From: Gammaproteobacteria bacterium
GTDB lineage: Bacteria > Pseudomonadota > Gammaproteobacteria > CAJXQU01
Reading direction: 5' to 3'
DNA: 64,000 nt
Assembly: GCA_965238175.1 (NCBI GenBank)
Contig: CBDEGZ010000003.1
Location: forward strand, 222,076-286,075
Part shown: positions 2,590-63,504 of the stretch, in pieces
Layout: every line of letters begins with the position of its first letter
Position numbering within the stretch: the stretch's first letter is position 1
Made by a program: the position numbers and the translations under genes
Notes under the pieces: model-generated
The model's database searches: none
What the model was told of the DNA's origin: nothing
Seen by the model: the letters and a program-made list of their open reading frames with translations, nothing else

Positions 2590-2754
2590 TTTTTCTATAG
2601 CTAAGTAGCCCAGGTTAGAAACTTGTTTCTTATCCTAATTGTTTCCATTTATAGTAGGATTAAAAAACATTGTGGCTTTAATATAATTTCACAGTGCGTC
2701 ATACTATTGACATTGCATAGTCCCTAAATAATTATTTGTAGGGGGATAATTCAA

Positions 2755-3300
2755 TTGAAGACAACAACAAAAACTACGTCCATCTTATTAATATTGCTTT
2801 TCACTTGCATTGCTTCAGGTTGTCAGATGTTGACGATTTTTGATCAGGAACTTGCAACTAACGACCTCGTATCAAATACCACTCCAGAAACTACCCCTGA
2901 AGCGACTGATGTTAGGAAATTAACCCGTGAGCTTCCGGTTATTTTTTTTGCGTCAGGTAGTACCCAATTGAGTAATGAAGCACGAAAGCAGATCCGTAAT
3001 ATTGCACCACTGTTCAATCATCCAGATATCATTGATCAGACTCTAACCATTACAGGTCACTCAGATACCGCTGGAGGTGTGGATACAAACCTGGCCTTAT
3101 CTGCTAAAAGAGCTGAGTCAGTTAGCCGTGAATTAATCTTAAACGGTATACGCAATGAGCGCTTAGTTATTCAGGCCTTAGGCGAAAAACGACCTCAAGC
3201 TAAAGAAATATTAGAAGATGGTGAGTTTGATCCACAGGCCGCTGATAAAAATCGTCGAGTAGAGATCTACCTTGGTACAATACATTCAGAAGATGAGTAA
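2755..3300 (+). CDS. OmpA-family lipoprotein (peptidoglycan-binding OmpA/MotB C-terminal domain)
   Basis: TTG start with GGGGGA RBS 8 nt upstream. Lipobox (LFTCIASGC) and OmpA-like motifs 'TGHSDTAGG...NLALSAKRAESV...NRRVEI'. Confidence 0.8.
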   Translation: MKTTTKTTSILLILLFTCIASGCQMLTIFDQELATNDLVSNTTPETTPEATDVRKLTRELPVIFFASGSTQLSNEARKQIRNIAPLFNHPDIIDQTLTITGHSDTAGGVDTNLALSAKRAESVSRELILNGIRNERLVIQALGEKRPQAKEILEDGEFDPQAADKNRRVEIYLGTIHSEDE

Positions 3301-3315
3301 TTAACAAAATTAAGC

Positions 3316-5817
3316 ATGTATCGAAATTTCTTTAATCTACAAGAAAAACCTTTCAAACTAACGGCTTCACCGGAGGTATTCCACGACAATCAAGGAATCA
3401 CTCCTGCTTATAAGAAATTGATCAAAGCCATCCACTCCGAACAAAGATTGATTTTACTTTCAGGTCAAACGGGCACGGGTAAAACGTTGTGTGCAGAAAA
3501 ATTAAAGATCGATTTAAAAGGTGATCCCTATTTTGAATGTATTGCAATTCCTTTTACTTCCCTGCCACTTGACGAAATACTTGGTTACATTTGCAATAAT
3601 CTGAACCTTCATTTTGGTTTAGGCCAAGATATCGACAAGCTGGAAATTCTTGATCGTTTTCTCACACACGGACACTCTCCAATACGCTCAGTCATCATCT
3701 TAATCGACGAAGCACAAAATCTATCTCATACCATTTTGACTGGACTGGTCGAACTTGTAAAACTCGGTGTACGCTCAAAACGTAACATCCAAATTGTGGT
3801 GATGGCTCGCAATGAAACCGATCTGAATTTACATCACTCTCGCATGGCTGAATTTAATCAACATTTATCAGTAAAGTGTCAGTTAGAACCTCTCACTTTC
3901 GAAGAAACCGACTCCTATATTAAATATCATCTTGATATGGCTGGCGCTACAGACAACGGTTTTTTCACCAAGGAAGCCACCGCAAAAGTTTTTGAACTGA
4001 CTCAGGGTCGAGCACGAGCCATTAATGTTCTTTGTGATCACATCCTTAATACCGCCGCTCACGAAAAAGCAACCATCATTACGCCCCAACATGTATTTCA
4101 GTCTCACAACCAACAAAAGTTTGATGACACAATTGAAATGGATAGTTCACTTATTTCAGATGCTATTAAGGAATATGTATACGAAGAAAATCAAGTCTTA
4201 CAAAAAGAGTCGTATATCTCCACAAAACCAGAGATCTCAAATGAGCCTGATACAAAAGATCACTCTTTTTCTGAAATTGAACTTGAAGATACCGTTGAAC
4301 CTTTGATCACAAAGCTAAATACACTAGAAAACACTCACCCAACCAAATCTGTATCTAATCAATCTCTACCATCTGTAGAAGATGAAACAATAGAATTTGG
4401 AAGTACTATTATTCATACAAATAATGAACAACTGAAATCGAACACACGTAGTAAATTCAACATACCATTGTGGGGATTAATATCACTGCTTTTAATCGCA
4501 GGACTACTCTATCAAGTAAATCAACATAAGATTTTACCTTATTTAGAAAGCAGACAAATGGACCATGAAACTCTGCCACTAACAGTAGAACCTGTCATCC
4601 AACTTGCAGAAAAAATTGATCTGCCCGATGAAATTAATCTTCAAACGGAAATTGACACCCCAATAATCGACGAAAAGACCTCAAGAACCACTTATCCTCC
4701 AGAACAAAATTTCCCTGAATCTAATCGCACGATTAAAGAAAATACACTCAGCGAAAATCAAACTCTAACTGAAATTGTGCAAAAAGACCTAATGCCTGCG
4801 ACAATAATTATTGAATCGTCTGAAGAAAAAAATTCAGTTACCGAGATCGAGTTTTTATTAAAAAAAGCTAAAGTTCAAATAGCCAGTTTAAAACTTACAG
4901 TACCAAAAGATGATAATGCCTACGCAAGCTATAAGTCGATTTTACAAAAGGATCCTGAGAATGAACAAGCCAATCAAGGTATTGAAGATCTCAAACAAAT
5001 GTTCATTGAATGGGCAAAAAACAACGTCAAAAAAAACCAATTTGATCGCGCTCGCCATTATTATCGAAAAGCATTGATCGTCGATCCACAAGATCAAGAA
5101 ACACTACAAGCACTCTCCGAGCTTGAGAACAAAATCGGGGATACAGATAACATTGAATTTAAAGCTGGACTGTTAGGTCTCGCAGAAAAAGCCAACTTAG
5201 AAGAGATACAAATGCTTCTGAACAAAGGTGCGTTTCCAGAAGTACAAGATCAAAAAGGTAATACGCCACTAATGCTGGCTACCGAACGTGGTCATGTCGA
5301 AGTGATCGAAACATTATTAAACAATGGAGCTAATCCCAACATCAAAAACAACTCCGGTGACACTGCACTAATGAATGCGGTGTGGAATGCACACGCTGAA
5401 ATTGTTGATCTTTTGATCAATAAACAAGCAAATATTGATACCGCAAACAAACGTGGATGGACGGCTTTAATGTATGCTGCAGTACAGGGCCATATAGAAA
5501 TACTAGAACGGTTGACTCTTATGCGAGCGAATTTAGAATCAGAAACTGATGATCAAAAAACTGCACTTGCCATCGCTGCCTACAACGGACAATATGAAAT
5601 TGTCAAAGCACTATTAAAAAGTGGTGCACAAATAGATACACAAGATATATCTGGCTGGACACCTTTAATGTCTGCGGCCTGGAATGGTTATAAACCGATT
5701 GTGATTATGCTTTTAGAACATGGCGCAGATAAATCTATCGCCACCCCTGAAGGTGACAATGCTTTTGAGTTAGCCTCGGAACAGAGCCACTACTCCATTA
5801 TGACGTTACTAAAATAG
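3316..5817 (+). CDS. ExeA/GspA-like P-loop ATPase (GQTGTGKT, DEAQ box) with TM segment and C-terminal TPR + ankyrin repeat region
   Basis: N-terminus has Walker A 'GQTGTGKT' and 'LIDEAQNL', typical of ExeA/MSHA-type secretion ATPases (PEP-CTERM-locus ATPase-like). A TM helix lies near residues 380-400 (PLWGLISLLLIAGLLY). TPR-like repeats come next, then 6-7 ankyrin repeats (GNTPLMLATERGHVEVIETLLNNGANPN...). Confidence 0.8.
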   Translation: MYRNFFNLQEKPFKLTASPEVFHDNQGITPAYKKLIKAIHSEQRLILLSGQTGTGKTLCAEKLKIDLKGDPYFECIAIPFTSLPLDEILGYICNNLNLHFGLGQDIDKLEILDRFLTHGHSPIRSVIILIDEAQNLSHTILTGLVELVKLGVRSKRNIQIVVMARNETDLNLHHSRMAEFNQHLSVKCQLEPLTFEETDSYIKYHLDMAGATDNGFFTKEATAKVFELTQGRARAINVLCDHILNTAAHEKATIITPQHVFQSHNQQKFDDTIEMDSSLISDAIKEYVYEENQVLQKESYISTKPEISNEPDTKDHSFSEIELEDTVEPLITKLNTLENTHPTKSVSNQSLPSVEDETIEFGSTIIHTNNEQLKSNTRSKFNIPLWGLISLLLIAGLLYQVNQHKILPYLESRQMDHETLPLTVEPVIQLAEKIDLPDEINLQTEIDTPIIDEKTSRTTYPPEQNFPESNRTIKENTLSENQTLTEIVQKDLMPATIIIESSEEKNSVTEIEFLLKKAKVQIASLKLTVPKDDNAYASYKSILQKDPENEQANQGIEDLKQMFIEWAKNNVKKNQFDRARHYYRKALIVDPQDQETLQALSELENKIGDTDNIEFKAGLLGLAEKANLEEIQMLLNKGAFPEVQDQKGNTPLMLATERGHVEVIETLLNNGANPNIKNNSGDTALMNAVWNAHAEIVDLLINKQANIDTANKRGWTALMYAAVQGHIEILERLTLMRANLESETDDQKTALAIAAYNGQYEIVKALLKSGAQIDTQDISGWTPLMSAAWNGYKPIVIMLLEHGADKSIATPEGDNAFELASEQSHYSIMTLLK

Positions 5818-6382
5818 TGATTTTCAGTCAAAACAATTCCATATCATCAAAGTCTAATTAACCTGTGAATCTACAAACAAAACAAAAAGTGGAAATGTTA
5901 ATTTATACTTCTCAATAAAAACACGAAATGAATTCCATCTGAAAGTTCCATCGCCCTTACAAACAGCAAACATGCTTAACTGCTTTGAATATCTAATACT
6001 AAATAGGCGCCCCTGAAAAACAAACTAACTCATTGAATATGTTGTCAAAGACTCAGTAACAAGATGACCCAATCGACCAGAGATAGTAAAATGTAAGCTC
6101 GTTCTCTGGTCGAAATGGTGAATAAATGCTGACCAAAAACCGTACCAGTGGTTTTCAACCGAATTTGTTTGGGAATAGACTTACTTAAACAACTAGCTCC
6201 CTCTACCCCTTCACTAGCGCTATCCGCTCGCATTCCCTGGTATGACTTTGAAAAAAACAAATTCAAGCTCCCCTTTGAGGAAATCCCAGTACTCGCTTTG
6301 ATGTGCCGATCAGTCCTCTGTTTCGCTGGCATCAAAACGAATACCTTGTACAAAACGAGGCAAAGCAGCCACAAAAATTGAT

Positions 6383-6829
6383 ATGGCGACGCTATTAAAC
6401 GAATATCCCGATGATTATCAATGGGAGCGCGGTCAACACCTAGAGGTGAGGAAACTCGCCATTTATTATGCGCTCAACCAGCTCAAAAACCGTTATAAAA
6501 AAACGCTATCCCATCCAAAATCAGATGAATACCCGTCATGCTTTTCAACATCGGAGCGCTCGCTACGAAGCCATCGGTAAAAAAGTCTTTGCCTTGATAA
6601 AGGTGGTTTTGCCCAGTGCATGCCACGAACCCATGGTGATGCCGCTAAAGGGTTACGTTGTTATGGAAAACAAAACTGCCAGGCGAAAGGAAGAGTGAAT
6701 GTGATAGGCCCGATTAGTCGTATGACTTATTTAATGTTAAGTGTGTTTCCGTGCAACATTAATGCGGACATATTTTCTGCCTGGGTAACTCAAAATTTGC
6801 TGCCTAAGTTATCTAAGCAAAATGAATAG
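6383..6829 (+). pseudogene. Degenerate IS630/Tc1-family transposase remnant (frameshifted, truncated)
   Basis: Three overlapping frames carry pieces resembling IS630 transposases: '...YKKTLSHPKSDE', 'RTHGDAAKGLRCYGKQN.QAKGRVNVIGPIS...INADIFSAWVTQNLLPKL'. No intact DDE region or terminal repeats were identified. Confidence 0.45.
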
Positions 6830-6952
6830 TAGATTTATACTAGATGCTCAAAACATTAGTTTGTATGGCATATGAGCACTAACAATGGTCACGAACTCCA
6901 TAGTAGAATGTGAGATAAACAAGTTTTTGATTAGTAAAGTGACTAAATATTA

Positions 6953-26623: not shown

Positions 26624-27463
26624 ATGGATCGGTCACCTAATTTTCTTTATATTGGTACCAGTAAAGCAGGTTCTACGTGGTTGTATAATGTACTAGATAA
26701 TCACTCGAATATTTATATGGCACCTGGTAAGTCCATCTATTACTTTTGTAATCATTACGCGCGTGGCAGGGATTGGTATCTTCAGAATTTTGAATCTGCA
26801 GAACAACAAAAAATCATAGGTGAAGTTTCACATAGCTATCTTTACTCACCAGAAGCATGCCAGAGAATTGCGGAACTAAATCCAGATATGCATCTTATGG
26901 CATGTTTGCGAGAGCCCACAGATCGAGCCTTTTCTGATTATTTGGATGGCGTAAAAAATGGCCTGTTTCATGGCAGCTTTGAAGAAGAATTAGAACGAGC
27001 ACCTTCTTTAATTGATCGTGGAAAGTATGCAAAACATTTGAAATGTTATGTCGAACAATTTGGTCTTGAGCAACTTCATATTGGTGTGTTTGATGAGTTG
27101 GGGGCCGACCCAGATGTATTTGCCCAAAGAATATTTAAATTCCTTGCTGTAGAGGTGCGTGAACTTCCCAGCTCACAACGTAAAAAGATGATGCCAGCAG
27201 GAAAGCCCCGCTCCAAGTTTCTTGCACAATTTGCCAAGAAGGCCTCACATACTGCCAGATCTCTAGGTTTGAGGAAGTTGCGAGGCAAGGTAAAAACATC
27301 ACGATTAGCACGGAACATCCTCTACCGACCTTATACTGCTAAAGAAAAACCACAGATGAAGCCAGAAACAAGGAAGAGATTAAGAGAGGTTTTCCGAGAA
27401 GATGTTACCGCTTTAGATTCACTATTAAATATGGACTTTAAAGGACAATGGGGATACAAATAA
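26624..27463 (+). CDS. Sulfotransferase-domain protein (PAPS-dependent)
   Basis: AGGAG RBS. 5'-PSB motif 'IGTSKAGSTWL' and 3'-PB-like 'LREPTDRAFSDY'. 279 aa. Confidence 0.8.
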   Translation: MDRSPNFLYIGTSKAGSTWLYNVLDNHSNIYMAPGKSIYYFCNHYARGRDWYLQNFESAEQQKIIGEVSHSYLYSPEACQRIAELNPDMHLMACLREPTDRAFSDYLDGVKNGLFHGSFEEELERAPSLIDRGKYAKHLKCYVEQFGLEQLHIGVFDELGADPDVFAQRIFKFLAVEVRELPSSQRKKMMPAGKPRSKFLAQFAKKASHTARSLGLRKLRGKVKTSRLARNILYRPYTAKEKPQMKPETRKRLREVFREDVTALDSLLNMDFKGQWGYK

Positions 27464-28563
27464 GTACAACGCAAGAGACTATTTTTGCTCAGCATCTCTA
27501 CGATAATGCCGCTGATTATTTTCCGGATCTACTCACGCAAGAGGTCTTGGTAGATTTAGCTAATAAGTGGATACGAAACAACTCTGAGCTGTATCGTTTT
27601 AAGATAAGTGGAGGTATTACGGAACACTTTGTTTACGTTAAAGTACCGAGTCTACGTGGTGCTTCACGAGCAATTAAGCGACCTTACCTTATACCTGAAA
27701 CAACTTCAGATCAGAAATTTCAACTGCATTACACAACACTTGAATTGATTCAGCAGCATTTTGAGCAGTTGGGAGATCAACGTTTCGGTACGGTTAGAAT
27801 GCTGGACTCGTTACCTGAACATGATGCTTTCATCATGCAGGAGGCATCTGGTGAGATCATGCGTCGTTTATTGAACCGGGCTAGCCGTTCTAGCTTTGCA
27901 ACGGCTCCACAGCAACTGGAAAAGGCATTCAATAACGCGGGTGTCTGGTTACGAATATTTCACCAGGAGATGTCACCGCCAAATAATATAGAAATAATAC
28001 ACGACCAGCGCAGTGACTATGTTGCTGCTATAAGGATGTTTACAGAGTATCTATCTGGAGCGCTTGACGATCAAAAAATTTTTCATCAAATTGATTCAAA
28101 TATCGAGGGGATTGCTGAAAGAGTACTTCCAGAACAGTTACCGCTCGGTTCACGTTTTGGTGATTTTGGCTTGACAAATATACTTGTAGAAGCGGATGGT
28201 CGGGTCACCGGAATCGACACAATGGCCAAATGGCGAGCACCAATCTACGAAGATATCGCCTGGTTTCTCACCGCTTTGAAAGCCTACAACATGCAGTCAT
28301 ATAGCCAGGGTTTGGCCTTTAGTCCGAAAAAGATCAAGCTCCTTGAACAGCAGTTTTTGACGGGCTACTTTGCTAAAGATCCCATTCCTACAGCGGAAAT
28401 ACGTCTTTTTGAAATTCTAAGATTGTTGGAACGATGGTCTGCTAAAGTAAGTCGGAATCAATCCATGTCGGGGCCTGTAGGTAGTGTTAGATCATTCTTG
28501 GTAAATCGTTTTTTTCGGAAAACAATTGGTAATCTTCTGAAAGCTTGTGAGCAGACTACTTAG
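27448..28563 (+). CDS. Protein-kinase-like / APH-fold protein (paralog B)
   Basis: 'LGSRFGDFGLTNILV...VTGIDTMAKWRAPIYEDIAWFL'. Collinear with the 25336 paralog. Overlaps the sulfotransferase gene by 16 nt. Confidence 0.55.
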   Translation: MGIQISTTQETIFAQHLYDNAADYFPDLLTQEVLVDLANKWIRNNSELYRFKISGGITEHFVYVKVPSLRGASRAIKRPYLIPETTSDQKFQLHYTTLELIQQHFEQLGDQRFGTVRMLDSLPEHDAFIMQEASGEIMRRLLNRASRSSFATAPQQLEKAFNNAGVWLRIFHQEMSPPNNIEIIHDQRSDYVAAIRMFTEYLSGALDDQKIFHQIDSNIEGIAERVLPEQLPLGSRFGDFGLTNILVEADGRVTGIDTMAKWRAPIYEDIAWFLTALKAYNMQSYSQGLAFSPKKIKLLEQQFLTGYFAKDPIPTAEIRLFEILRLLERWSAKVSRNQSMSGPVGSVRSFLVNRFFRKTIGNLLKACEQTT

Positions 28564-28586: not shown

Positions 28587-29717
28587 ATGAACACACACAC
28601 GGACTTTGATATTCATGGGATCGTAGGGGTTCAAGTACAAGACGCTACAACCAAGGATATTTTGATGGTGGGGCGACAACTAGGACTTGTAGAAAAGCAA
28701 CTTGAACGACCTGCGGATATTATAATTCGCTTCGTAGATAAGTTAAAAACCCCAGAATCAATGCGCTATCTTGATCTGGGTGATATAGCGTTTACTGATG
28801 ATTCTTTTTATGTACTTAAAGGGAAACATAAATCACGTACAAAGGTAAAAATTCCATTTCAAGATATAGGTTCGCAATGCGAAATTGTTTGTGAGCGAGG
28901 TCTTGCGGCTGTTCCGCATCTAATCGATATTATTAATACGGTGGCACTGGGTAATGGTTTCCTGCCATTACATGCTTCCGCTTTTAATTATGATGGTGTT
29001 GGAGTAGTAGTAACGGGCTGGTCAAAGGGCGGTAAAACAGAAACGTTACTTGCTTTTATGGCTGAAGGAGCGGAGTACGTGGGAGATGAGTGGGTATATA
29101 TCAGTCGAGATGGAGCGCTAATGGCAGGTATTCCAATACCTATTCGTGTATGGGATTGGCATCTAGATGATTTACCAAACTATCGGAAAATACTTGGTCG
29201 TCGTGATCGATACCGGCTTCGGGTTCTAAAAACATTTGTTCGGATTACTGAGAAAATTAGCGAAGGTAAGATTGGGAAAGGATACCTGTCAAAACTCATG
29301 AATCGAGTTGCACCTCTACTCAAAAAGCAGATGTATGTAAATTGGTCTCCTGGGAAGGTTTTTCATAATACGAAATTTTTGATGAAAGGGAGGCCAGATA
29401 AGCTCTTTTTTGTAGGCAACCACATATCGTCAGATGTTGTGGTCTCACCGATGGATCCAAGCGAGATTGCAAAGCGAATTTACTTCTCGATACAAGAGGA
29501 ACGTGATGACTTTATTGCTATCTATCAACAATATCGTTTCGCATTTCCTGAACAACCTAATGAACTAATAGATCAGTCCAGCCAAATACAGCAAGAACTA
29601 TTGAACACAGCACTTTCTGGTAAAGAATCTTATTCGGTTTTTCACCCATACCCCGCACCTGTTTCGAAATTGTTTGAAGTAATCTCTCCATTATGCAAGC
29701 CCATCACTGAGGTTTAG
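28587..29717 (+). CDS. HprK-like P-loop protein (paralog 1; Walker A 'TGWSKGGKTETLL')
   Basis: The central 'VVVTGWSKGGKTETLLAFMAEGAEYVGDEWVYISRDG' resembles the HPr kinase/phosphorylase C-terminal P-loop (G.SG.GKSE.AL.L). ~45% identical by eye to the ORF at 38354-39496. The function assignment is tentative. Confidence 0.45.
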   Translation: MNTHTDFDIHGIVGVQVQDATTKDILMVGRQLGLVEKQLERPADIIIRFVDKLKTPESMRYLDLGDIAFTDDSFYVLKGKHKSRTKVKIPFQDIGSQCEIVCERGLAAVPHLIDIINTVALGNGFLPLHASAFNYDGVGVVVTGWSKGGKTETLLAFMAEGAEYVGDEWVYISRDGALMAGIPIPIRVWDWHLDDLPNYRKILGRRDRYRLRVLKTFVRITEKISEGKIGKGYLSKLMNRVAPLLKKQMYVNWSPGKVFHNTKFLMKGRPDKLFFVGNHISSDVVVSPMDPSEIAKRIYFSIQEERDDFIAIYQQYRFAFPEQPNELIDQSSQIQQELLNTALSGKESYSVFHPYPAPVSKLFEVISPLCKPITEV

Positions 29718-33078: not shown

Positions 33079-35883
33079 ATGAACGATACAGCGAAAAAAA
33101 GGGAAGAAGAAATTGAGAATGGACAGGGAAGTCGCAAGAAGAGGTATTCTTGGGCATCTAAAATTAAAGCTGTTAAACAAGTTCTAGGCGGTCGGCCCAT
33201 GGATGAAGTTGCAAGTGAATATGGAGTGCGTCCTAAAACGATAAGCAAGTGGTGTCGAAACTGGAAGAAAGAATTTGCAAAGAACGTAGTAGATGATCAT
33301 AGCAAAGTAGATAGCCCTAAAGATTCGCTTGTAACTCGTGCTGTTGAGCATTGGAATGATTCAGCTGATGATTTAATTGTTGATGCAATAGGTAAAAACT
33401 TAAATGCAACACATAGGATTGATAATTCACCTCCAAGACATTCGACAGAAATAACGAACACATCATCACATCATGAAAGAAGAACCATAAAAAATAGTGA
33501 GGATATCTACAAGCAGCAACTAAATGTTCAACAATTCTCAAAAAATCAATCAAGTAGGAGGATAATTGAACCACAAACCGCATTCTCAGGCCAGGCATCC
33601 CTTAGAGAAGTCTTGGGAATACTACAGGAATCTAAGTGGTTTATTAGCCGGATCGTTCTACTTACGGCACTTCTGGGAATATTACATCTTTGGTTTGTAC
33701 CGCCTATTTACCGAGCAGATGCAATACTGGAAATTGAAGAAAATGTTCGTGGCACAGGTGCCGTCCTTGATAATTCTAACGATCTGAATGAGGAAGGTGC
33801 CATTGTTAGTGAGGAAGTCGAGATCCTTAAATCCAGAGCAGTTGTTCGTGAAGTTGTTAATAATCTTAAATTAGATTTCATTATGAGTCCAAAATACTTC
33901 CCGGTTATCGGGGAGGCAATCGCGCGAAAAAATCCTATATTAACAAACTCAAAGGAAGGTTTATCTGAAGTACCTTTATCTGCGGCATGGATTGTTAAGC
34001 AGATTCCATCAATTGAAGAGCCTCTAAAATCCACATATGCATATATTCAAACCTTAAAAACAAAATTATATGATCAACTCAAGTCTTCAAAATATGCGTG
34101 GGGAAATGAACAAATTATTGTAGAAGAAATGATCGTGCCTGATAGTTTATTGGGTGTGAAATATACCGTTATAGCTACGGATAACAAACAATATCAATTG
34201 CTTGATCAAGATGGACAAAAATTAGGAATGGGCAAAATTGGAGAGCCACTTGAGATCTCATTGCCGGATGGAAAGTTTGTCTTGCTTCTTTCAGACCTTA
34301 CTGCCACGACAGGTAAGCATTTTGAAATAACGAGAGTTCCGTTGATTGTCGCGATTGGTCAACAACAGAAAAATGTGATCGTGCGAGAGAAAGCGGGTGT
34401 TGTTAACTCTGGTCTTTTGGGCGTAACTCTAGAAGGAGCGGACAGGTTTAGCATTGTATCCATCATTAACGAGTTAATGGATACTTATATTCGCCAAAAT
34501 GTTGATCGTAAAGCAGCTAATGCTGAAAAGAAATTAAGCTTCATGGAGGAGCAGCTTGCTGTTCTCGAAGAAAGCATGAGTACAGCAGAGCAAGGATTGA
34601 ACAACTATCGACAGCAAGAAGGTTCCGTTGATCTGGCGACAGAGTCGGAAGTAATTCTAAAGCGAATTGTTGAAGTAGAATCGGAAATTTCAAGTCTTAC
34701 CAGGAATCGTCTTGAGCTTATCCAAAAATTTAAACCCAGACATCCTAAGATTCGGGCATTAGATGGACAGGTAGGTACATTAAAAAGAGAGCTGGAAAAA
34801 TTGAACGGAAAGGTAAAGAAATTACCAGATACACAACAGCAAGTACTCAGTATGACAAGAGACGTCGATGTTCAAGCTAAACTTTACTCTTTTCTTTATA
34901 ATAAAATTCAAGAACTTAAAGTTATTACTGCCGGTTCTATTGGAAACTTAAGAGTTGTTGATTATGCAACACTGCCGGTTGAGCCTGTCAAACCGCAAGG
35001 AAAAGTGATAATCGTAGCGTATCTATTGCTGGGTTTAATTCTAGGGGTTGGCGCCAGCTTTGTTAGAAGGGGAATGCATGCAGGGGTACATGATCCAGAG
35101 GTTATTGAGAAACAACTGGGCCTTGAGGTTCTTGCGGAGCTACCTTTGAGCCCACAACAGGCTAAACTTAAGAAAAGCAGCATTTTTGGTAAAAGTTCTA
35201 AAAAAGGTATTCTTGCGATTGTTAATCCAGAAGATCCAACCATTGAGGGTCTGCGTAATCTTAGAACCTCACTTTACTTCTCTCAGTTTGAGTCGAAAAA
35301 TAATCTGATAGTCATTACTGGGCCTGCACCAGAAGTAGGCAAATCATTTGTTTCTATAAATTATGCTGCTGTTTTAGCAAGTTCGGGTAGTCGTGTTTTA
35401 GTGATTGATGCAGATTTTCGCAGGGGCACTATCAGTGAATATGTCGGGATAGAACGCCATAGTGGGCTATCTGATTTGATCCTTGGGAAAATGAGTGCTG
35501 AGGAAGTGATTCAAGAAACAGATGTTGAAGGTCTGGACGTCATCACATCAGGCAAAATGCCTTCGAATCCTTCAGAGCTGCTACTACACGAAAACTTCGC
35601 AAGAGTATTAGAAAACATTTCGGCAAACTATAATTTTGTGATCATTGATACACCCCCAATCTTGGCATTTTCTGATGCCACGGTAATCGCACGACTTGCT
35701 GGCTCAGCTTTGCTTGTGGTCAAGTCTGGAATGCATTCGGTACGCCAGTTGGAATACACCATCAAGCAATTAAATAAAGCTGACGTCAAGTTAGAAGGTG
35801 TTGTTTTCAATGGACTGGATATAACAAATACAGCTTATGGGTACGGGCACAGTTATGGTTATTCGTACTCTTACAAAAATTAA
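33079..35883 (+). CDS. Polysaccharide co-polymerase / BY-kinase (Wzc/EpsG-like tyrosine autokinase) with unusual N-terminal transposase-like HTH extension
   Basis: TM1, periplasmic coiled-coil Wzz-like region, TM2, then Walker A 'GPAPEVGKSFVSINYAA', Walker B 'VIIDTPP', and a Tyr-rich tail 'YGYGHSYGYSYSYKN'. The first ~110 residues ('KRYSWASKIKAVKQVLGGRPMDEVASEYGVRPKTISKWCRNWKK') look like an IS3-OrfA-type HTH. The true start may be internal, possibly non-ATG. Confidence 0.85.
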   Translation: MNDTAKKREEEIENGQGSRKKRYSWASKIKAVKQVLGGRPMDEVASEYGVRPKTISKWCRNWKKEFAKNVVDDHSKVDSPKDSLVTRAVEHWNDSADDLIVDAIGKNLNATHRIDNSPPRHSTEITNTSSHHERRTIKNSEDIYKQQLNVQQFSKNQSSRRIIEPQTAFSGQASLREVLGILQESKWFISRIVLLTALLGILHLWFVPPIYRADAILEIEENVRGTGAVLDNSNDLNEEGAIVSEEVEILKSRAVVREVVNNLKLDFIMSPKYFPVIGEAIARKNPILTNSKEGLSEVPLSAAWIVKQIPSIEEPLKSTYAYIQTLKTKLYDQLKSSKYAWGNEQIIVEEMIVPDSLLGVKYTVIATDNKQYQLLDQDGQKLGMGKIGEPLEISLPDGKFVLLLSDLTATTGKHFEITRVPLIVAIGQQQKNVIVREKAGVVNSGLLGVTLEGADRFSIVSIINELMDTYIRQNVDRKAANAEKKLSFMEEQLAVLEESMSTAEQGLNNYRQQEGSVDLATESEVILKRIVEVESEISSLTRNRLELIQKFKPRHPKIRALDGQVGTLKRELEKLNGKVKKLPDTQQQVLSMTRDVDVQAKLYSFLYNKIQELKVITAGSIGNLRVVDYATLPVEPVKPQGKVIIVAYLLLGLILGVGASFVRRGMHAGVHDPEVIEKQLGLEVLAELPLSPQQAKLKKSSIFGKSSKKGILAIVNPEDPTIEGLRNLRTSLYFSQFESKNNLIVITGPAPEVGKSFVSINYAAVLASSGSRVLVIDADFRRGTISEYVGIERHSGLSDLILGKMSAEEVIQETDVEGLDVITSGKMPSNPSELLLHENFARVLENISANYNFVIIDTPPILAFSDATVIARLAGSALLVVKSGMHSVRQLEYTIKQLNKADVKLEGVVFNGLDITNTAYGYGHSYGYSYSYKN

Positions 35884-38353: not shown

Positions 38354-39496
38354 TTAGACGTATGGTTTAATTGCCTCGTATAGATCTGGAATCGAGACAG
38401 GATAGGGATGAGAAACCAGATAAGCCTCCTTGCCCGCTAATACTTTTTTTAACATGTCACATTGGAGCTCTTCGGAATTTTCAATATATGAGTTCTTAAG
38501 CTCGGGAAACGCAAATTTAAACTTTAGATAATTATTAACAAAATCTATTTGCTCATACTGCAGAGAAAATACCATGCGTTGAGCAACTTCATCAGGCTCA
38601 ATATGCTCAACGGTTATTTCTGGTTTGTTGTGGCTAAAGACAAAAAAGAATTTATCAGGAATACCACTTAGAGATGATTCAAGACCTTTCTGATTAAACG
38701 CTTCTTTAGGTGGTAAATGCACATAGAGTTGCTTCTTGATCAATGGTTTGAGACGGTTGAAAAATGACAGAAGTTTTGAGTTACTTCGCGGATTCCTGGA
38801 TATACACCACTCTATGAAGTTGACACTCTTTCTGAGGAAGTAAAGTCGACACTTATCAGTATGGCCAACAAAATCCCACAACCGAGGTATTTCATGTAAA
38901 TGCCAATCCCAGATCCGAATGGGCTCTGGAATGCCATGCATGCGTTTACCATCAACAGATAGATAAATCCATTCATCGCCGACATACTCGGCACCATTTG
39001 CGATAAAACCAAGCAACGTTTCAGTCTTACCACCTTTGGCCCAACCAGTTGCAACTACTCCTTTATCATTATAGGTAAAGGCCGATGCATGTAACGGTAA
39101 CGCACCATTTTTCAATGCGATCAGATTGATTATGGCGATTAGCATCGGTACTGCTGCAAGCCCTCTTTCGCAGATTATCTCACACTGACTACCAATTTGA
39201 TCAAATGGAATTTGGACTTTAGCGCGAGACTTTTGTTTGCTACGCAAAATTAAAAAAACATCTTCCGTATAGCCTGCTTCATCTACTTCTAAATATTTGA
39301 TCGGGGAAGATATCTGTAATTCGTCCACGAACTTAATAATTATGTCAGGTTCACGATCTAGATCTTTTTGGAGAGGACCAACTTGTCTGATGACAATCGC
39401 AATATCTTTTGGAGAAGCGTCAACTAGTCGAATACCTACAATACCATGCAGATCAAATTCGGTACTGGACGAAATACTCTCTGGACTGACTGCCAT
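38354..39496 (-). CDS. HprK-like P-loop protein (paralog 2; 'TGWAKGGKTETLL')
   Basis: Collinear with 28587-29717 ('DLHGIVGIRLVDASPKDI...QIPFDQIGSQCEIICERGLAAVP...ASAFTYNDKGVVATGWAKGGKTETLLGF...GDEWIYLS.DG...GIPEPIRIWDWHL'). Confidence 0.45.
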   Translation of the reverse strand: MAVSPESISSSTEFDLHGIVGIRLVDASPKDIAIVIRQVGPLQKDLDREPDIIIKFVDELQISSPIKYLEVDEAGYTEDVFLILRSKQKSRAKVQIPFDQIGSQCEIICERGLAAVPMLIAIINLIALKNGALPLHASAFTYNDKGVVATGWAKGGKTETLLGFIANGAEYVGDEWIYLSVDGKRMHGIPEPIRIWDWHLHEIPRLWDFVGHTDKCRLYFLRKSVNFIEWCISRNPRSNSKLLSFFNRLKPLIKKQLYVHLPPKEAFNQKGLESSLSGIPDKFFFVFSHNKPEITVEHIEPDEVAQRMVFSLQYEQIDFVNNYLKFKFAFPELKNSYIENSEELQCDMLKKVLAGKEAYLVSHPYPVSIPDLYEAIKPYV

Positions 39497-44742: not shown

Positions 44743-45968
44743 TGTAGAAATTCAGATTTGATCTGACAGTTACCCAATTATCAGTAACCGACTGTCAGGT
44801 TAAGTTTAATTCACAAACTTTTCCTTCCAGATAGCTTGTCCGTCGATGAGTGTTTCCATCGGCGTCCTCCCGCAGCACATTTTGCCTTGGTGAGTTCGTT
44901 GAGTATTGTATTTGAGCAACCATTCGTCAAGGTCGAGTTGCAGTTCATCAATCGATTGGTAAATTTTCTTACGCAAAGCGACTTGATAAAACTCATTGAG
45001 GATCGTCTTATGGAATCGCTCACAAATACCATTCGTCTGAGGTGATTTGACCTTGGTTTTGGTGTGTTCGATATTGTTCAACGCCATATAAAGCTGATAA
45101 TCATGCTGGTCAGCTCGCCCACAATACTCCGTCCCTCTATCTGTCAAAATGCGCAACATAGGCAAACGTTGTTCTTCGTAGAATGGGAGGACGCGGTCAT
45201 TGAGCATGTCAGCTGCCGTAATCGGTGTTTTAGTCGGGTACAGTTTCGCGTGAGCGACCTTGCTGTAAGTATCAACAAACGTTTGTTGATAAACCCGACC
45301 AATGCCTTTGAAAGTACCGACATAGTAAGTATCTTGCGAGCCAAGATAACCAGGGTGTGCCGTTTCTATCTCGCCACAAGCCTCATCGTCGTCTTTTTTG
45401 CGTTCCATCGCCGCGACTTGAGACTCAGTGAGGATCAAGCCTTCACCAGCTACCTTATCAGACAATGCCTTCAGGCGATCTTTAAAGCAAGCAAGACCAT
45501 GACGAAGCCAGATACAACGAACGCCACTGGGTGAGACAAATGTTCCCCGTTTGCGCAGCTCGTTACTGGTGCGCGTTTGACCATGTGCGGGCTCTTCCAG
45601 TGCATACTCGAGCACAACGGTTTCAATAGCCGGGTCGATTCTGTTTTTAAGATTTGGGGTACGCCGATTACGATCAAACAAGGCTTCTACACCGCCTTCA
45701 TCAGCCGCTTCTTTGTAGCGATAAAATATATCTCTGGACAAACCCATCATCTTGCAGGCTTTTGAGACATTGCCGAGTTCTTCAGCGAGATTGAGTAGAC
45801 CAACTTTATGTTTTATAACTTTGTCATTAGTATGAATCATGAGAGTTACCTCTTTGTGTTTTGATGTTTACGTTGCAGTTACATCAAAGCGGGTAACTCT
45901 CACTAAATCAAGCGTCGCTACGCTCCGCTTGATTTAGTGATGTGTCAGATTGGGTCTAAACTTCTACA
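44743..45968 (-). mobile_element. IS481-family insertion sequence, copy 1 (1226 bp) with 7-bp target-site duplication GTTTACT
   Basis: Identical to the copy at 62266-63491. Imperfect ~24-bp terminal inverted repeats: TGTAGAAaTTcAGAtttgATCTGA / TGTAGAAgTTtAGAcccaATCTGA. Flanking direct repeat gtttact (44736-44742 and 45969-45975). Confidence 0.85.
44806..45840 (-). CDS. IS481-family DDE transposase (344 aa)
   Basis: N-terminal HTH ('LSRDIFYRYK') and rve-type integrase core ('...RILTDRGTEYCG...', 'NGICERFHKTILNEF'). It differs from the second copy by one residue (I/T). Confidence 0.9.
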   Translation of the reverse strand: MIHTNDKVIKHKVGLLNLAEELGNVSKACKMMGLSRDIFYRYKEAADEGGVEALFDRNRRTPNLKNRIDPAIETVVLEYALEEPAHGQTRTSNELRKRGTFVSPSGVRCIWLRHGLACFKDRLKALSDKVAGEGLILTESQVAAMERKKDDDEACGEIETAHPGYLGSQDTYYVGTFKGIGRVYQQTFVDTYSKVAHAKLYPTKTPITAADMLNDRVLPFYEEQRLPMLRILTDRGTEYCGRADQHDYQLYMALNNIEHTKTKVKSPQTNGICERFHKTILNEFYQVALRKKIYQSIDELQLDLDEWLLKYNTQRTHQGKMCCGRTPMETLIDGQAIWKEKFVN

Positions 45969-45982
45969 GTTTACTTATATTG

Positions 45983-50220: not shown

Positions 50221-51657
50221 ATGGAAATTACAGGCTACAAAATAGATAGAACAATTGGTGAAGGTGGCATGGCGACAGCTTACCTTGCCGAACAGGAATC
50301 GCTAGGGCGGTTGGCTGTACTTAAAGTGCTCAACACAGACAATCGAGATACCAAAGAAAATGTAGAACGCTTTCTAAATGAAGGCCGTATTGTTGCTTCC
50401 CTTAACCACCCGCACATTATTACTATTTATGATATTGGTATTGAAGAAGATTTTATCTTTATCTCAATGGAGTATATCGAAGGTGGTGACCTAAAAGAAC
50501 GTCTAAAGAATCCGGTTTCTGCTTCAGAAGCAATCGATATTATCAAAAAGGTCTGTAGTGGTCTTGACGTTGCGCATCGTAAAGGCATAGTTCATCGTGA
50601 TGTAAAACCAGGCAATATTTTGTTCAAAACCAGTGGTGAGCCATTACTGACCGATTTTGGGATCGCCAAGCGTTTGACGATGGATCAAGACCTTACTATG
50701 ACGGGTGTTTTCCTCGGTAGTCCAAACTATATGGCACCTGAGCAAGCAGAAGATGGGCCGATTGACGGGCGCGCAGATATTTATGCGTTGGGTGTTATTT
50801 TGTATGAAATGCTCGTCGGACAGAAGCCCTATAAGTCAGAATCTATAATTGATGTCATTGTTCAACATAAACAAGCGCCAGTGCCCATCCTGCCAGAAAA
50901 ACACCAGGTCTATCAGCCCCTGTTGAACATGATGATGGCTAAAAATCGTAAAAATCGTTTTAGAGATGCTGCTAGTGTCCTGCATTTTATTCATCACCTT
51001 GAGCAACTGGAATCGTTAAAAGTTCCAACAGATGATCAGGTAATAAAAGAAATGCCTGCCGATGAAGTATTCACATCTCATCTGCGACAACCAAAAAAAG
51101 CACGGAAATGGTCGACTTATGTTTTGACGGGGTTACTGCTGTTAACCGCATCAGGATTTGCTTTTGTTTCATTTATGAATACGAAACTCAGCCACGAAAT
51201 TTCTACTCTCAGTACTATTGAAGCAGAAGAAGCTAATCTAGAGTCATTCGTGAAGCTCGCACCAATTCCAGAGGTAGGATCAAAACCACTGAAAGTGAAT
51301 AATCCTGATGAGGTTGAGGAGGTATCAAAAGCATTAGGCTGGTTAGCGAGAAAAAGTCTGGAAGAATATCGTTTGACCGCCCCCCCGAAAGACAATGCTT
51401 ATTATTATTATGTGCGCTTGCTTGAGATCAATCCGAACAACAATATTGCCAGACAAGGTTTGCGACACATTGCAGAGAAATTTGCTCTTCTCGCAGAAAG
51501 AGAGTTGGCGGATAACCATTACCAAGCAGCTGCGGGTTACATTGAAATTGGTTTACAGATTAATCCCAGTAATCCAACATTGAAACAACTAAAATTGTTA
51601 ACTGCCACGAGCAAGCGTAGTGTTTTTGATAGTATCAAGAGCTTATTCAGCTCCTAG
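50221..51657 (+). CDS. Hanks-type Ser/Thr protein kinase with TM segment and C-terminal TPR repeats
   Basis: 'IGEGGMATAY', 'AVLKVL', 'HRDVKPGNILF', 'DFGIAK', 'SPNYMAPE'. A TM helix lies at ~300-320; TPR-like 'YYYYVRLLEINPNNNIARQGL...YQAAAGYIEIGLQINPSN' follows. Confidence 0.85.
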   Translation: MEITGYKIDRTIGEGGMATAYLAEQESLGRLAVLKVLNTDNRDTKENVERFLNEGRIVASLNHPHIITIYDIGIEEDFIFISMEYIEGGDLKERLKNPVSASEAIDIIKKVCSGLDVAHRKGIVHRDVKPGNILFKTSGEPLLTDFGIAKRLTMDQDLTMTGVFLGSPNYMAPEQAEDGPIDGRADIYALGVILYEMLVGQKPYKSESIIDVIVQHKQAPVPILPEKHQVYQPLLNMMMAKNRKNRFRDAASVLHFIHHLEQLESLKVPTDDQVIKEMPADEVFTSHLRQPKKARKWSTYVLTGLLLLTASGFAFVSFMNTKLSHEISTLSTIEAEEANLESFVKLAPIPEVGSKPLKVNNPDEVEEVSKALGWLARKSLEEYRLTAPPKDNAYYYYVRLLEINPNNNIARQGLRHIAEKFALLAERELADNHYQAAAGYIEIGLQINPSNPTLKQLKLLTATSKRSVFDSIKSLFSS

Positions 51658-58492: not shown

Positions 58493-59467
58493 CTAAGCAA
58501 TTTCTGCTTCATCTGCATCTATAGTTTCAACACTTTTTTCCAGTGAAATAACCGCTGTTACTTCATTTCCTTTATCGTTGTATATCAAATTATCTAGACT
58601 CATCAAATTGGATGAAGCAATGCCTCTACCATGAGTATCGAAAACACGTTCAGGACTAAACTCCATGTATTTTCCCCAGTCAAAACCTTCCCCTTGATCC
58701 CTAATTATTATTGTTATATTTTTTTTATTACGCTTAAATGTCACATTGACAAATTTTTCCTTATTTTCAGGTAAGGCCAAACGTCTATCAACCTCATCTT
58801 TCCATTGACCTTTTTTATCTAGCTCAGACTTTTCATGATAGGTGATACCAATATTGCCATGCTCTACAGCATTTACGAATAGCTCGGACAAACCAATAAC
58901 AACTTTTTGTGGTTTTGGACAAGTTCTTGCCAAATACGTTGCTAAAGACTGCGCTTCATCTAATGTCTGGAATTGAAACTGCGCGTAATTTATCATCCCT
59001 GCTGAAATAATACTTTCCATTAAAGACTGTTGAACGCGAACAGCTTTTTTACTTTCCGCAACGGCGCTCCCTACCATTGACAATAAAACATCTTCATCAA
59101 ATGGCTTCGTCAAATAAAAATATGCGCCAGCGTCAATCCCTTCTTTAATATCTTCTTTTGTTGATCTTGCTGTTTGTAATATAACGGGTATGTTTTTTAA
59201 GGCAGGATCTTGTTGAATTATTTCCATCAACTCTAAACCTGTCATAACTGGCATCATACGATCAAGTAATAACACATCTATCTTATGCGCAACTAATTTT
59301 AAGATTTCTAAGGCTTCAGCTCCATTACTCGCAAAACTTAGTTTGTAATCTTCATTTTCAAGGTAAAACTCAATAATTTCTCTATTGAGTGGTTCGTCAT
59401 CAACGATGAGGATATGTGGTTTGTTTTCTTGAATAGAATTACATGTCTCGTTCATATTCATTACCAT
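58493..59467 (-). CDS. Response regulator receiver fused to RsbW/SpoIIAB-like anti-sigma-factor serine-kinase (HATPase_c_2) domain
   Basis: REC domain ('ILIVDDEP...LLDRMMPVMTG...LTKP'), then 'LSELFVNAVEHGN...DQGEGFD', typical of GHKL partner-switching kinases. Confidence 0.7.
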   Translation of the reverse strand: MVMNMNETCNSIQENKPHILIVDDEPLNREIIEFYLENEDYKLSFASNGAEALEILKLVAHKIDVLLLDRMMPVMTGLELMEIIQQDPALKNIPVILQTARSTKEDIKEGIDAGAYFYLTKPFDEDVLLSMVGSAVAESKKAVRVQQSLMESIISAGMINYAQFQFQTLDEAQSLATYLARTCPKPQKVVIGLSELFVNAVEHGNIGITYHEKSELDKKGQWKDEVDRRLALPENKEKFVNVTFKRNKKNITIIIRDQGEGFDWGKYMEFSPERVFDTHGRGIASSNLMSLDNLIYNDKGNEVTAVISLEKSVETIDADEAEIA

Positions 59468-59489
59468 TGATTAGTAGTACCTTAATAAT

Positions 59490-60494
59490 TTATGCCGGAT
59501 TTTTTTCAGAAACTGAATTGTTTCTAGCTTTGCTTTTACTCAATTCAGAATCCTGAGTTTTGCATGCTTCTAATAACAAGGAAAATTTAAATATACTGCC
59601 GCCTTCGGGATTTTGTTCAACCCATATATGACCTTCATTTAATTCAATGATACTTTTACAAATTGCTAAACCTAAACCAGTTCCACCTACATATGAGCTA
59701 GTTTTACTACTCTGAATAAACTTATCAAATACTGACTTTAACTCATTATCTGGGATCCCAACACCTTGATCGGCTATAGATACTTCTAGAGCTGGATATT
59801 GTTCTTTATCTATTAACTGAACACTATGGCAGTAGGAAATGGTTATCTCTTTACCATTTTCTGAAAACTTAATCGCATTGATTATAATATTTCTAATAAC
59901 CTGTTCAATTTTAACTGGATCAAAAAAAGCAACTGTCTCACATTCAGGAACTATAATTTTTACGGAAATAGTTTTTTCATCTAAAACCATCTGCTGTTCA
60001 GCCAAGACAATATCAACAACACTTTGTATATCTGACTTTCTACGGCTAATAACAAATTGACCTGATTCAAATTTTGATAAATCTAGCAAGTCATTAAGTA
60101 ATGTTAGTAATTTTTTGCCGCTTATATTTATATTACTGAAATATTTTTCTAACCTTTCTAGCTTACTTTTATCTATATCTTTTTTACCAAAATCTGAAAA
60201 ACTTATAATCGCATGTAGTGGTGTCCTAAGTTCGTGAGACATATTCGCCAAAAATTCACTTTTAGATCGATTGCGCGCCTCAGCTTTTGCTACAACAGCA
60301 TGAAAGCTATTTGTCTTTTCTTCAATGATTCTCTGTAGGTATATATTACGTTCAAACACTGCAAACGAATCACTTGTGTTTTGAATACTGCGCTGAACCC
60401 GATCGCGTAACGCCTTAATCACTTTATCTTTTTTATCTAGTTTCTTCTGCAACTTTTCAATTTCTTTTTCTAACACTTCTTCTGATGAGGTCAT
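59490..60494 (-). CDS. Sensor histidine kinase (coiled-coil N-terminus, HisKA + HATPase_c)
   Basis: H-box 'FLANMSHELRTPLHAI'. N-box 'IRNIIINAIKFS', G1 'DQGVGI', G2 'GGTGLGLAI'. Confidence 0.85.
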   Translation of the reverse strand: MTSSEEVLEKEIEKLQKKLDKKDKVIKALRDRVQRSIQNTSDSFAVFERNIYLQRIIEEKTNSFHAVVAKAEARNRSKSEFLANMSHELRTPLHAIISFSDFGKKDIDKSKLERLEKYFSNINISGKKLLTLLNDLLDLSKFESGQFVISRRKSDIQSVVDIVLAEQQMVLDEKTISVKIIVPECETVAFFDPVKIEQVIRNIIINAIKFSENGKEITISYCHSVQLIDKEQYPALEVSIADQGVGIPDNELKSVFDKFIQSSKTSSYVGGTGLGLAICKSIIELNEGHIWVEQNPEGGSIFKFSLLLEACKTQDSELSKSKARNNSVSEKNPA

Positions 60495-60500
60495 ATCTGA

Positions 60501-63491: not shown

Positions 63492-63504
63492 TTTAAAAAC
63501 AGCG

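Follow-up and report, generated by a model that had tools for sequence, protein, structure and literature searches.

An ExeA/GspA-Like ATPase With Ankyrin Repeats and a Paired OmpA-Domain Lipoprotein: A Conserved Variant From Uncultured Gammaproteobacteria

Introduction

ExeA/GspA-like ATPases are widespread, and to our knowledge only the version that belongs to type II secretion systems (T2SS) has been studied. A two-gene locus at positions 2755-5817 of a 64,000-nucleotide stretch of gammaproteobacterial DNA (assembly GCA_965238175.1, contig CBDEGZ010000003.1, positions 222,076 to 286,075; hereafter the window) raises the question of what such an ATPase might do when it ends in ankyrin repeats and stands beside a gene for a peptidoglycan (PG)-binding lipoprotein. 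The initial annotation, made from the letters of the DNA alone, had regarded the locus as a split, rewired ExeAB-type module, possibly serving a PEP-CTERM/exosortase or exopolysaccharide (EPS) machinery 5 kb away. In this study, we analyzed the motifs, predicted structure, relatives and genomic context of the two genes. The pair is a real, conserved and uncharacterized variant of the ExeA/GspA ATPases, and the connection to the EPS locus was not borne out.

Results

Two open reading frames (ORFs) on the plus strand fill the locus, the lipoprotein gene preceding the ATPase gene (Table 1). The head of the ATPase matched PF13401 (AAA_22) at 2.5e-13 and is homologous to GspA/ExeA (~30% identity, E 1e-26). 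Its Walker A motif and DEAQ box are intact, as had been noted at the outset: together with the G-R-A-R-x-I-N lid motif they are invariant in the 13 members of the family, and their core (G50, G55, K56, T57 and D131-Q134) is invariant across 63 ExeA/GspA-like sequences, in which G231 and N237 of the lid motif are invariant too and R234 is conserved in at least 90%. The best conserved region of the whole protein is the segment QQKFDDTIEM-SSLISDAI, with a mean pairwise identity of 75%. The AAA+ fold of the head is nearest to the switch/initiator proteins Cdc6/ORC/TnsC/MuB; a sequence search found no solved structure for an ExeA-type head, the top match being Cdc6 at E 0.023.

An AlphaFold model of the 833-aa protein, built on 13 orthologues, consists of the AAA+ domain (residues 1-266), a disordered stretch (268-385), a transmembrane (TM) helix (386-414), a second disordered stretch (415-507), a five-helix TPR-like domain (510-611) and seven ankyrin helix pairs (619-832; predicted local distance difference test score >90). 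Residues 383-405 are the sole hydrophobic segment of the protein (Kyte-Doolittle 1.96 over 19 aa), and a TM-grade segment occupies the matching position in 12 of the 13 family members (the exception is P0002), despite the low identity there. Ankyrin matches are strong from residue 617 to the end (Ank_2, 1.7e-52, PF12796/PF00023; PDB ankyrins, 1e-92), and the seven helix pairs in the model confirmed tandem 33-residue helix-turn-helix repeats. Most relatives possess eight repeats, the window protein and its closest relative being short of one 33-aa repeat. Several repeats keep Trp or Tyr at positions 3 and 11, which, from general knowledge of ankyrin repeats, we take to be on the concave, binding face. 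Pfam TPR matches were weak and below threshold (residues 567-611). The protein had initially been described as a TM helix followed by ~430 residues of TPR-like and six to seven ankyrin repeats; the TM helix and seven ankyrin repeats stand, while ~100 of those residues proved to be a disordered acidic spacer and the "TPR" part a single module of ~100 aa. Because the repeats follow a single TM helix behind an ATP-using domain, the TPR-like and ankyrin part is predicted to be periplasmic.

Searching 5.8 billion proteins for the full ATPase architecture yielded 12 further full-length proteins at 40-69% identity. Beyond these, matches were ~30% identical over the head only and were mostly GspA/ExeA with PF01471. 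An exhaustive profile search with the non-ankyrin part of the protein added one divergent member (P0149, 34% identity). A scan of genome contigs gave at least one full-length member and at least one fragment among the matches listed, and the species distribution is therefore undersampled. Genomes carrying the family include GCA_045110495.1, GCA_054024145.1, GCA_053986195.1 and ERZ1743479; some close relatives, such as the one with a 2.93-Mb contig in ERZ25073254, seem to be without the pair. Mean pairwise identity is 66% in the ATPase domain, 56% in the TPR-like module, 66% in the ankyrin domain and 22-25% in the two linkers; the ankyrin domain, with the same identity as the ATPase domain, is thus as constrained as the enzyme. 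All ProA relatives at 88-96% identity came from metagenome-assembled genomes, and the nearest named taxa (Spongiibacteraceae, Methylococcales, Sulfuricaulis and a Solemya symbiont) reached 73-74%. The pair is confined to a small lineage of uncultured marine gammaproteobacteria.

The product of the upstream gene matched PF00691 (OmpA) at 6e-20, with 71.8 bits against a threshold of 27.2. Translation from a TTG start at 2755, located 8 nt 3' of GGGGGA, gives a signal peptide that ends in the lipobox IASG-C23. In the public annotation of the source genome the gene begins at an internal Met (157 aa) and the signal peptide is lost, whereas the TTG start restores both signal peptide and lipobox, which are conserved in all relatives (2755-2826). 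Seven OmpA partner proteins share invariant G101, H102, S103, D104, T105, N112, R119, A120 and N166-R-R-V-E170, and the PG-contact motif (D of GHSD, R of KRA, and NRRVE) lies among these invariant residues. With lipobox Cys and PG-binding residues all invariant, the lipoprotein looks competent, and judging from its motifs the OmpA domain should bind PG non-covalently. It is not Pal itself, since its TIGR02802 score (53.2 bits) falls below the cut-off of 125.35; no tol genes are adjacent.

The OmpA gene had been seen immediately upstream of the ATPase gene in the window, and this arrangement proved to be conserved in every relative that was read. It lies directly upstream, with gaps of ~8-54 nt, in nine of nine distinct family members for which upstream DNA was read (the window, P0002, P0003, P0006, P0009, P0010, P0011, P0149 and the fragment L005). 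Three flanking contexts were found: most relatives have rpe/DUF3530-pair-Band_7/NfeD, the closest relative has rhodanese-pair-DUF6077, and the window has glnA-DUF4124-pair-insertion sequence (IS) debris-proA. In contrast, a hidden Markov model built from the partners detected an OmpA-like ORF within 8 kb at none of ~60 other ExeA-like loci. Kept in three contexts and absent from ~60 other loci, the pairing is specific to the family and moves as a unit. The sizes of the two families are also alike (13 ATPase hits of full length against 14 OmpA clusters). In six relatives an exported DUF3530 protein is encoded just 5' of the pair (L004 6353-7348, with equivalents in L002, L073, L074, L076 and L078); its features are a signal peptide and an alpha/beta-hydrolase-like GHGMG motif that lacks the usual Ser. 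This gene stays beside rpe in the closest relative (L001), with the pair four genes further on, and it is not present in the window's locus. We treated DUF3530 as synteny rather than as a third component, a choice that is unproven.

The exhaustive profile search gave 28,048 matches at E <= 0.001, including proteins that match the TPR-like module alone. The TPR-like segment of ~100 aa recurs as a discrete module, often in tandem, with up to 17 copies per protein. It occurs in Hanks-type Ser/Thr kinases (P0150, P0153), in further ExeA-like ATPases that have no ankyrin repeats (P0152, P0156, P0162, P0165, P0174), and beside ankyrin repeats without an ATPase (P0171); one such kinase is encoded in the window itself (Table 1). 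Above threshold, the module is not covered by any Pfam family. These kinases share with the ATPase both the extracytoplasmic module and the layout of enzyme, TM helix and module, but they have a kinase domain rather than an AAA+ ATPase, and neither ankyrin repeats nor an OmpA partner. The TPR-like module is extracytoplasmic, and its place after the TM helix of Hanks kinases gives independent support for a periplasmic TPR-like and ankyrin part, as had been suggested initially. A cytoplasmic enzyme followed by one TM helix and one or more modules is a recurrent design. Three findings had been named beforehand as refuting the initial description: cytoplasmic repeats, a pair that relatives do not conserve, and degenerate ATPase motifs. 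All three were checked; the repeats are predicted on the periplasmic side, the pair is conserved, and the motifs are intact.

Table 1. Positions of the gene pair, its parts and associated features in the window
Feature	Positions	Strand	Remarks
OmpA-domain outer-membrane lipoprotein, Pal-like partner gene	2755..3300	+	181 aa; PF00691
Lipobox A-S-G-C (Cys23), Gln at +2	2812..2823	+	Cys23 invariant in 7 partner proteins
OmpA_C-like peptidoglycan-binding domain; motifs GHSDT-G, N-LS-KRAESV, NRRVE	2944..3273	+	PF00691
ExeA-type ATPase with TM helix, TPR-like module and ankyrin repeats	3316-5817	+	833 aa; begins 15 nt past OmpA stop
Cytoplasmic ExeA-type AAA+ domain (residues 1-266)	3316..4113	+	PF13401 AAA_22
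Walker A GQTGTGKT (residues 50-57)	3463..3486	+	Sequence motif
Walker B / DEAQ box IDEAQN (residues 130-135)	3703..3720	+	Sequence motif
G231-R-A-R234-A-I-N237, lid/sensor motif of ExeA-like ATPases	4006..4026	+	Conservation in 63 sequences
Family-specific cytoplasmic motif QQKFDDTIEM-SSLISDAI (residues 266-290)	4111..4185	+	Predicted helical
Variable acidic disordered cytoplasmic linker (residues 291-382)	4186..4461	+	25% identity, 66-93 aa in family
Single TM helix (residues 383-405)	4462..4530	+	Kyte-Doolittle and AlphaFold
Disordered spacer, predicted periplasmic, Glu/Thr/Ile/Leu/Pro-rich, net charge -13 (residues 406-507)	4531..4836	+	22% identity, 102-139 aa in family
One ~100-aa TPR-like module (residues 508-612), motif LKLT-P-DNA-Y-IL-DP-N-A-GI	4837..5151	+	
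Seven ankyrin repeats (residues 613-833) and stop codon	5152..5817	+	Pfam, PDB, AlphaFold
Promoter-like site TTGACA-17-AATTAT, in the 165-nt gap 5' of the OmpA gene	2707..2735	+	Consensus match only
Second promoter-like site	2660-2687		Consensus match only
Rearrangement scar without intact gene, between pair and proA, outside the module	5818..6952		IS630-type transposase fragments
Hanks-type Ser/Thr kinase: kinase domain, one TM helix, one extracytoplasmic module copy	50221-51657		Module E 7e-14

For the neighborhood, 47 ORFs of the window (most of those of at least 110 aa) were scanned with Pfam and/or NCBIfam. The EPS locus at 11.6-41.5 kb is of the Wzx/Wzy/Wza/Wzc type; PEP-CTERM-specific models stayed below cut-off, and none of the 47 ORFs belonged to an exosortase or PEP-CTERM family. 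Five housekeeping genes (proA, nadD, rsfS, rlmH and maf) lie between the pair and this locus. In two close relatives (L083, L085) hemB-proA-nadD-rsfS-rlmH-maf-ppa-H+-PPase is contiguous, with maf and ppa adjacent or one to two genes apart, and without the EPS locus, which is accordingly an insertion in this strain. One of these two relatives carries a 69%-identical orthologue of the ATPase on another contig. Between the pair and proA, collinear sub-threshold fragments of HTH_Tnp_IS630 (6383-6580, E 0.0027) and DDE_3 (6620-6829, E 1.2e-4) were detected. Since relatives have hemB directly before proA, the segment holding them marks a rearrangement breakpoint, and the pair was brought beside proA by rearrangement.

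Discussion

GspA is a PG-binding ATPase that acts with a periplasmic partner; it is defined by periplasmic cysteine-peptidase-like and PF01471 domains, and the GspA/GspB partners are highly variable, at times fused or truncated (PMC9239104). The ATPase of the pair has much in common with GspA/ExeA, the secretin-assembly ATPase of the Aeromonas and Vibrio T2SS that works with GspB/ExeB: the same AAA_22-type head with Walker A, Walker B and G-PR-IN motifs, one TM helix, a large C-terminal part predicted to be periplasmic, and a tie to a PG-binding domain. They differ in what lies beyond the membrane, where GspA/ExeA has cysteine-peptidase-like and PF01471 domains and the present family has a spacer, a TPR-like module and seven to eight ankyrin repeats, and also in that GspA/ExeA contains its own PG-binding domain whereas here it is a separate OmpA-type lipoprotein. 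The cysteine-peptidase-like domain of GspA is presumably PF21327; a Pfam scan found neither this family nor PF01471 in the window ATPase, and GspA homologues carry both. No GspB-like Pfam family was found on the neighbors in the window or in the relatives' loci, and no gsp cluster lies near the pair. With the PF01471 and PF21327 domains and the GspB partner missing, a strict GspA identity was rejected. The protein is without PF01471 while an OmpA-type binder is encoded next door, so that it is fair to speak of PG binding moved in trans. To this extent the view of a split, rewired module holds, with a GspA-homologous head and the PG binder in trans; the "ExeAB-type" part of it has to be dropped, as no context contained a GspB-like gene.

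ExeA-like ATPases have also been linked to type IV pili. MshM of the Vibrio MSHA pilus is encoded beside the TPR protein MshN, a pairing that resembles the ATPase and TPR-like module found here. The ExeA-like PA5037 of Pseudomonas aeruginosa affects type IV pili, and its mutants have fewer pili (PMC6321873). Unlike the present pair, the genes for PA5037 and MshM/MshN stand beside pilus/secretin genes, and these proteins have neither ankyrin repeats nor an OmpA partner. In Tol-Pal, an inner-membrane-anchored protein likewise uses a long periplasmic segment to reach a PG-bound OmpA-domain lipoprotein, and the partner lipoprotein is about as large as Pal and built alike (lipobox, short linker, OmpA domain). 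The resemblance is no more than an analogy: the pair has no TolA/TolQ/TolR homology, and Tol-Pal is driven by proton-motive force whereas the energy for the pair would come from a cytoplasmic AAA+ ATPase. Ankyrin repeats can act in the periplasm, as is shown by Bd3460 of Bdellovibrio, which binds peptidoglycan-modifying enzymes (PMC4686830), and by RARP-1 of Rickettsia (bioRxiv 10.1101/2022.02.23.481736); both are small and soluble and possess neither ATPase nor TM anchor nor OmpA partner. No publication in the library searched mentions ExeA together with ankyrin, and, going by title or abstract, its papers on ExeA-like ATPases do not deal with this architecture.

We tentatively favor, at slightly less than an even chance, the reading that the pair forms an ATP-switched bridge from the inner membrane to the cell wall and outer membrane, with PG binding in trans. 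Judging from its sequence, the ATPase sits in the inner membrane with the N terminus on the cytoplasmic side, and its head belongs to the ExeA-type AAA+ ATPases, which are of the Cdc6/ORC/TnsC "switch" kind. The acidic spacer of ~100 residues would let the TPR-ankyrin solenoid reach the peptidoglycan/outer-membrane layer, where the co-expressed OmpA lipoprotein, or a complex that it anchors, might serve the rigid solenoid as docking site. ATP-dependent oligomerization of the cytoplasmic heads would then cluster or release the solenoid contacts, so that inner membrane, peptidoglycan and outer membrane would be joined under the control of ATP. The logic of ExeA/GspA would be kept, with a protein-binding solenoid in place of the periplasmic domains of GspA and the PG binder supplied in trans. 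Several points weigh against such a bridge. Adjacency and co-occurrence are the sole link between the ankyrin/TPR part and the OmpA lipoprotein; the topology is based on hydrophobicity, the model and analogy; no client machine (secretin, T2SS or type IV pilus) was found in any context read; and signaling may run inside-out or outside-in. In addition, the distant cousin P0181 (ATPase-TM-two modules-ankyrin, 26-32% identity and 26% in the head, with IDDAHS replacing IDEAQN) has no OmpA gene within 8 kb and no partner or client gene in its context, and the TPR-only relatives P0165 and P0156 stand alone among housekeeping genes, without a partner or client gene, which indicates that the solenoid can work without an OmpA partner.

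Other readings keep the membrane-spanning layout and assign it another task. The pair could be a functional equivalent of GspA/ExeA that helps a secretin encoded elsewhere (GspD, PilQ or similar) to cross or insert through the peptidoglycan, the solenoid replacing GspB and the OmpA lipoprotein replacing PF01471. The GspA-homologous head, the variable and sometimes fused or truncated GspA/GspB partners (PMC9239104) and the effect of PA5037 on type IV pili (PMC6321873) fit this role, which we nevertheless consider unlikely: GspB is absent, and no secretin, gsp, pil or msh gene was found within 8-10 kb in nine family contexts, nor among the scanned ORFs of the 64-kb window. It is likewise rather improbable that the protein is an outside-in receptor, in which the periplasmic module and ankyrins sense a wall or periplasmic ligand or protein and the AAA+ switch oligomerizes and recruits a cytoplasmic partner through QQKFDDTIEM, with the OmpA lipoprotein as ligand presenter or co-receptor. 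Such a receptor would explain why the most conserved segment is a cytoplasmic motif right behind the ATPase domain, and it would agree with the nearness of the fold to switch/initiator proteins and with the use of the module as the extracytoplasmic part of many Hanks kinases, the window kinase included; yet the pair has no conserved neighbor gene for a cytoplasmic partner or regulator, and ExeA itself is thought to act inside-out. We also regard as doubtful a self-contained, ATP-driven counterpart of Tol-Pal, in which the solenoid engages the Pal-like lipoprotein under an AAA+ switch and independently of a secretin, and the TPR-like module is a general, undescribed cell-wall or envelope-sensing domain. 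If this were true, ATP and not proton-motive force would set outer-membrane tethering or envelope remodeling.

Two further explanations have little left in their favor. The proposal that the pair is an accessory of PEP-CTERM/exosortase or EPS export machinery starting ~5 kb downstream had some basis, as TIGR03015 is the best NCBIfam match of the head (E 4.8e-40, residues 1-258), a large EPS locus is present, and glycosyltransferase genes on the opposite strand also follow downstream of the closest orthologue (L001). However, the TIGR03015 score of 137.7 bits lies far under the cut-off of 324.5, and this model, with 269 positions, leaves the TM helix and the periplasmic domain of the window protein uncovered; with no exosortase nearby, identity as an XrtA/PEP-CTERM system-associated ATPase was rejected, and with it the earlier placement in the PEP-CTERM-locus subfamily. 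Seven other family loci have Band_7/NfeD or a contig end downstream and none has EPS genes. The link to the EPS locus was rejected because this locus is a strain-specific insertion that two sister genomes lack and because IS630 debris joins the pair to proA; synteny contradicts this explanation, and we give it almost no likelihood. The remaining explanation is that the hydrophobic segment does not span the membrane, so that the ankyrins are cytoplasmic or the protein is a secreted host-targeting effector and the OmpA gene an unrelated neighbor. Bacterial ankyrin proteins described so far are mostly host-directed effectors, the best NCBIfam ankyrin matches were Legionella Dot/Icm effectors, and the TM helix was called from hydrophobicity and the structural model. 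The Legionella matches were all far below their cut-offs, though, and thus reflect generic ankyrin similarity. The position of the TM-grade segment is kept in all members but one, the OmpA pairing is strict, and the homologous GspA and the module-sharing kinases have the same order of cytoplasmic, TM and outer parts, which makes this explanation very unlikely.

The family illustrates a modular design, in which a separate lipoprotein can take over PG binding and a protein-binding solenoid can make up the periplasmic part. The split arrangement would allow the ATPase, spanning and PG-binding functions to be tested separately. The analysis also points to an uncurated extracytoplasmic module of ~100 aa that is common to Ser/Thr kinases and ExeA-like ATPases. 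These prospects have their limits in a small family, known from uncultured gammaproteobacteria only, with no client found and without a genetic system.

Additional Features of the Window

Upstream of the pair, the gene at 1969-2589 encodes an exported DUF4124 protein with a BiPBP_C/Ig-like C-terminal domain, and it was not found beside the pair in any relative. Promoter-like sites in the region upstream of the OmpA gene are no more numerous than in shuffles. An anti-phage defense system was considered and rejected, as PADLOC returned generic ankyrin (PDC-M72A, MzaA) and MotB/ZorB-type OmpA matches only and the context is housekeeping.

The EPS insertion (10900-41600, ~31 kb, between maf and ppa) seems strain-specific. 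It carries Bac_transf, GT2, a Wzx-like flippase, an LVIVD propeller, an alginate-lyase-like gene, a sulfotransferase, Wzy_C, Wza, Wzc, GT4 and a deacetylase, and it also encodes a 1696-aa CBM96/DUF7933/DUF11 protein. The Wzc tyrosine-kinase ORF (33079-35883, 934 aa) has an N-terminal match to the transposase family HTH_Tnp_1 at residues 19-63, and Wzc models align only from about residue 320 on; either the ORF seems to be called too long or an IS fragment seems to have been fused to it in frame. The ORFs at 28587-29717 and 38354-39496 (~380 aa) match no Pfam family and have faint HprK-related kinase B similarity (E ~1e-5 to 1e-4), and the ORF at 27448-28563 gave no match.

Two 1.23-kb IS copies (44743-45973 and 62266-63495) are 99.7% identical, and each has a minus-strand gene for a 344-aa HTH/rve transposase; the first copy lies between the H+-PPase gene and rsmE, where relatives have nothing. 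No tRNA and no Rfam match were found in the window. On the minus strand, 58493-61754 encodes a NosP-like nitric-oxide sensor (369 bits, cut-off 450), a histidine kinase and a response regulator with HATPase_c_2, and it looks like a nitric oxide-responsive signaling operon.

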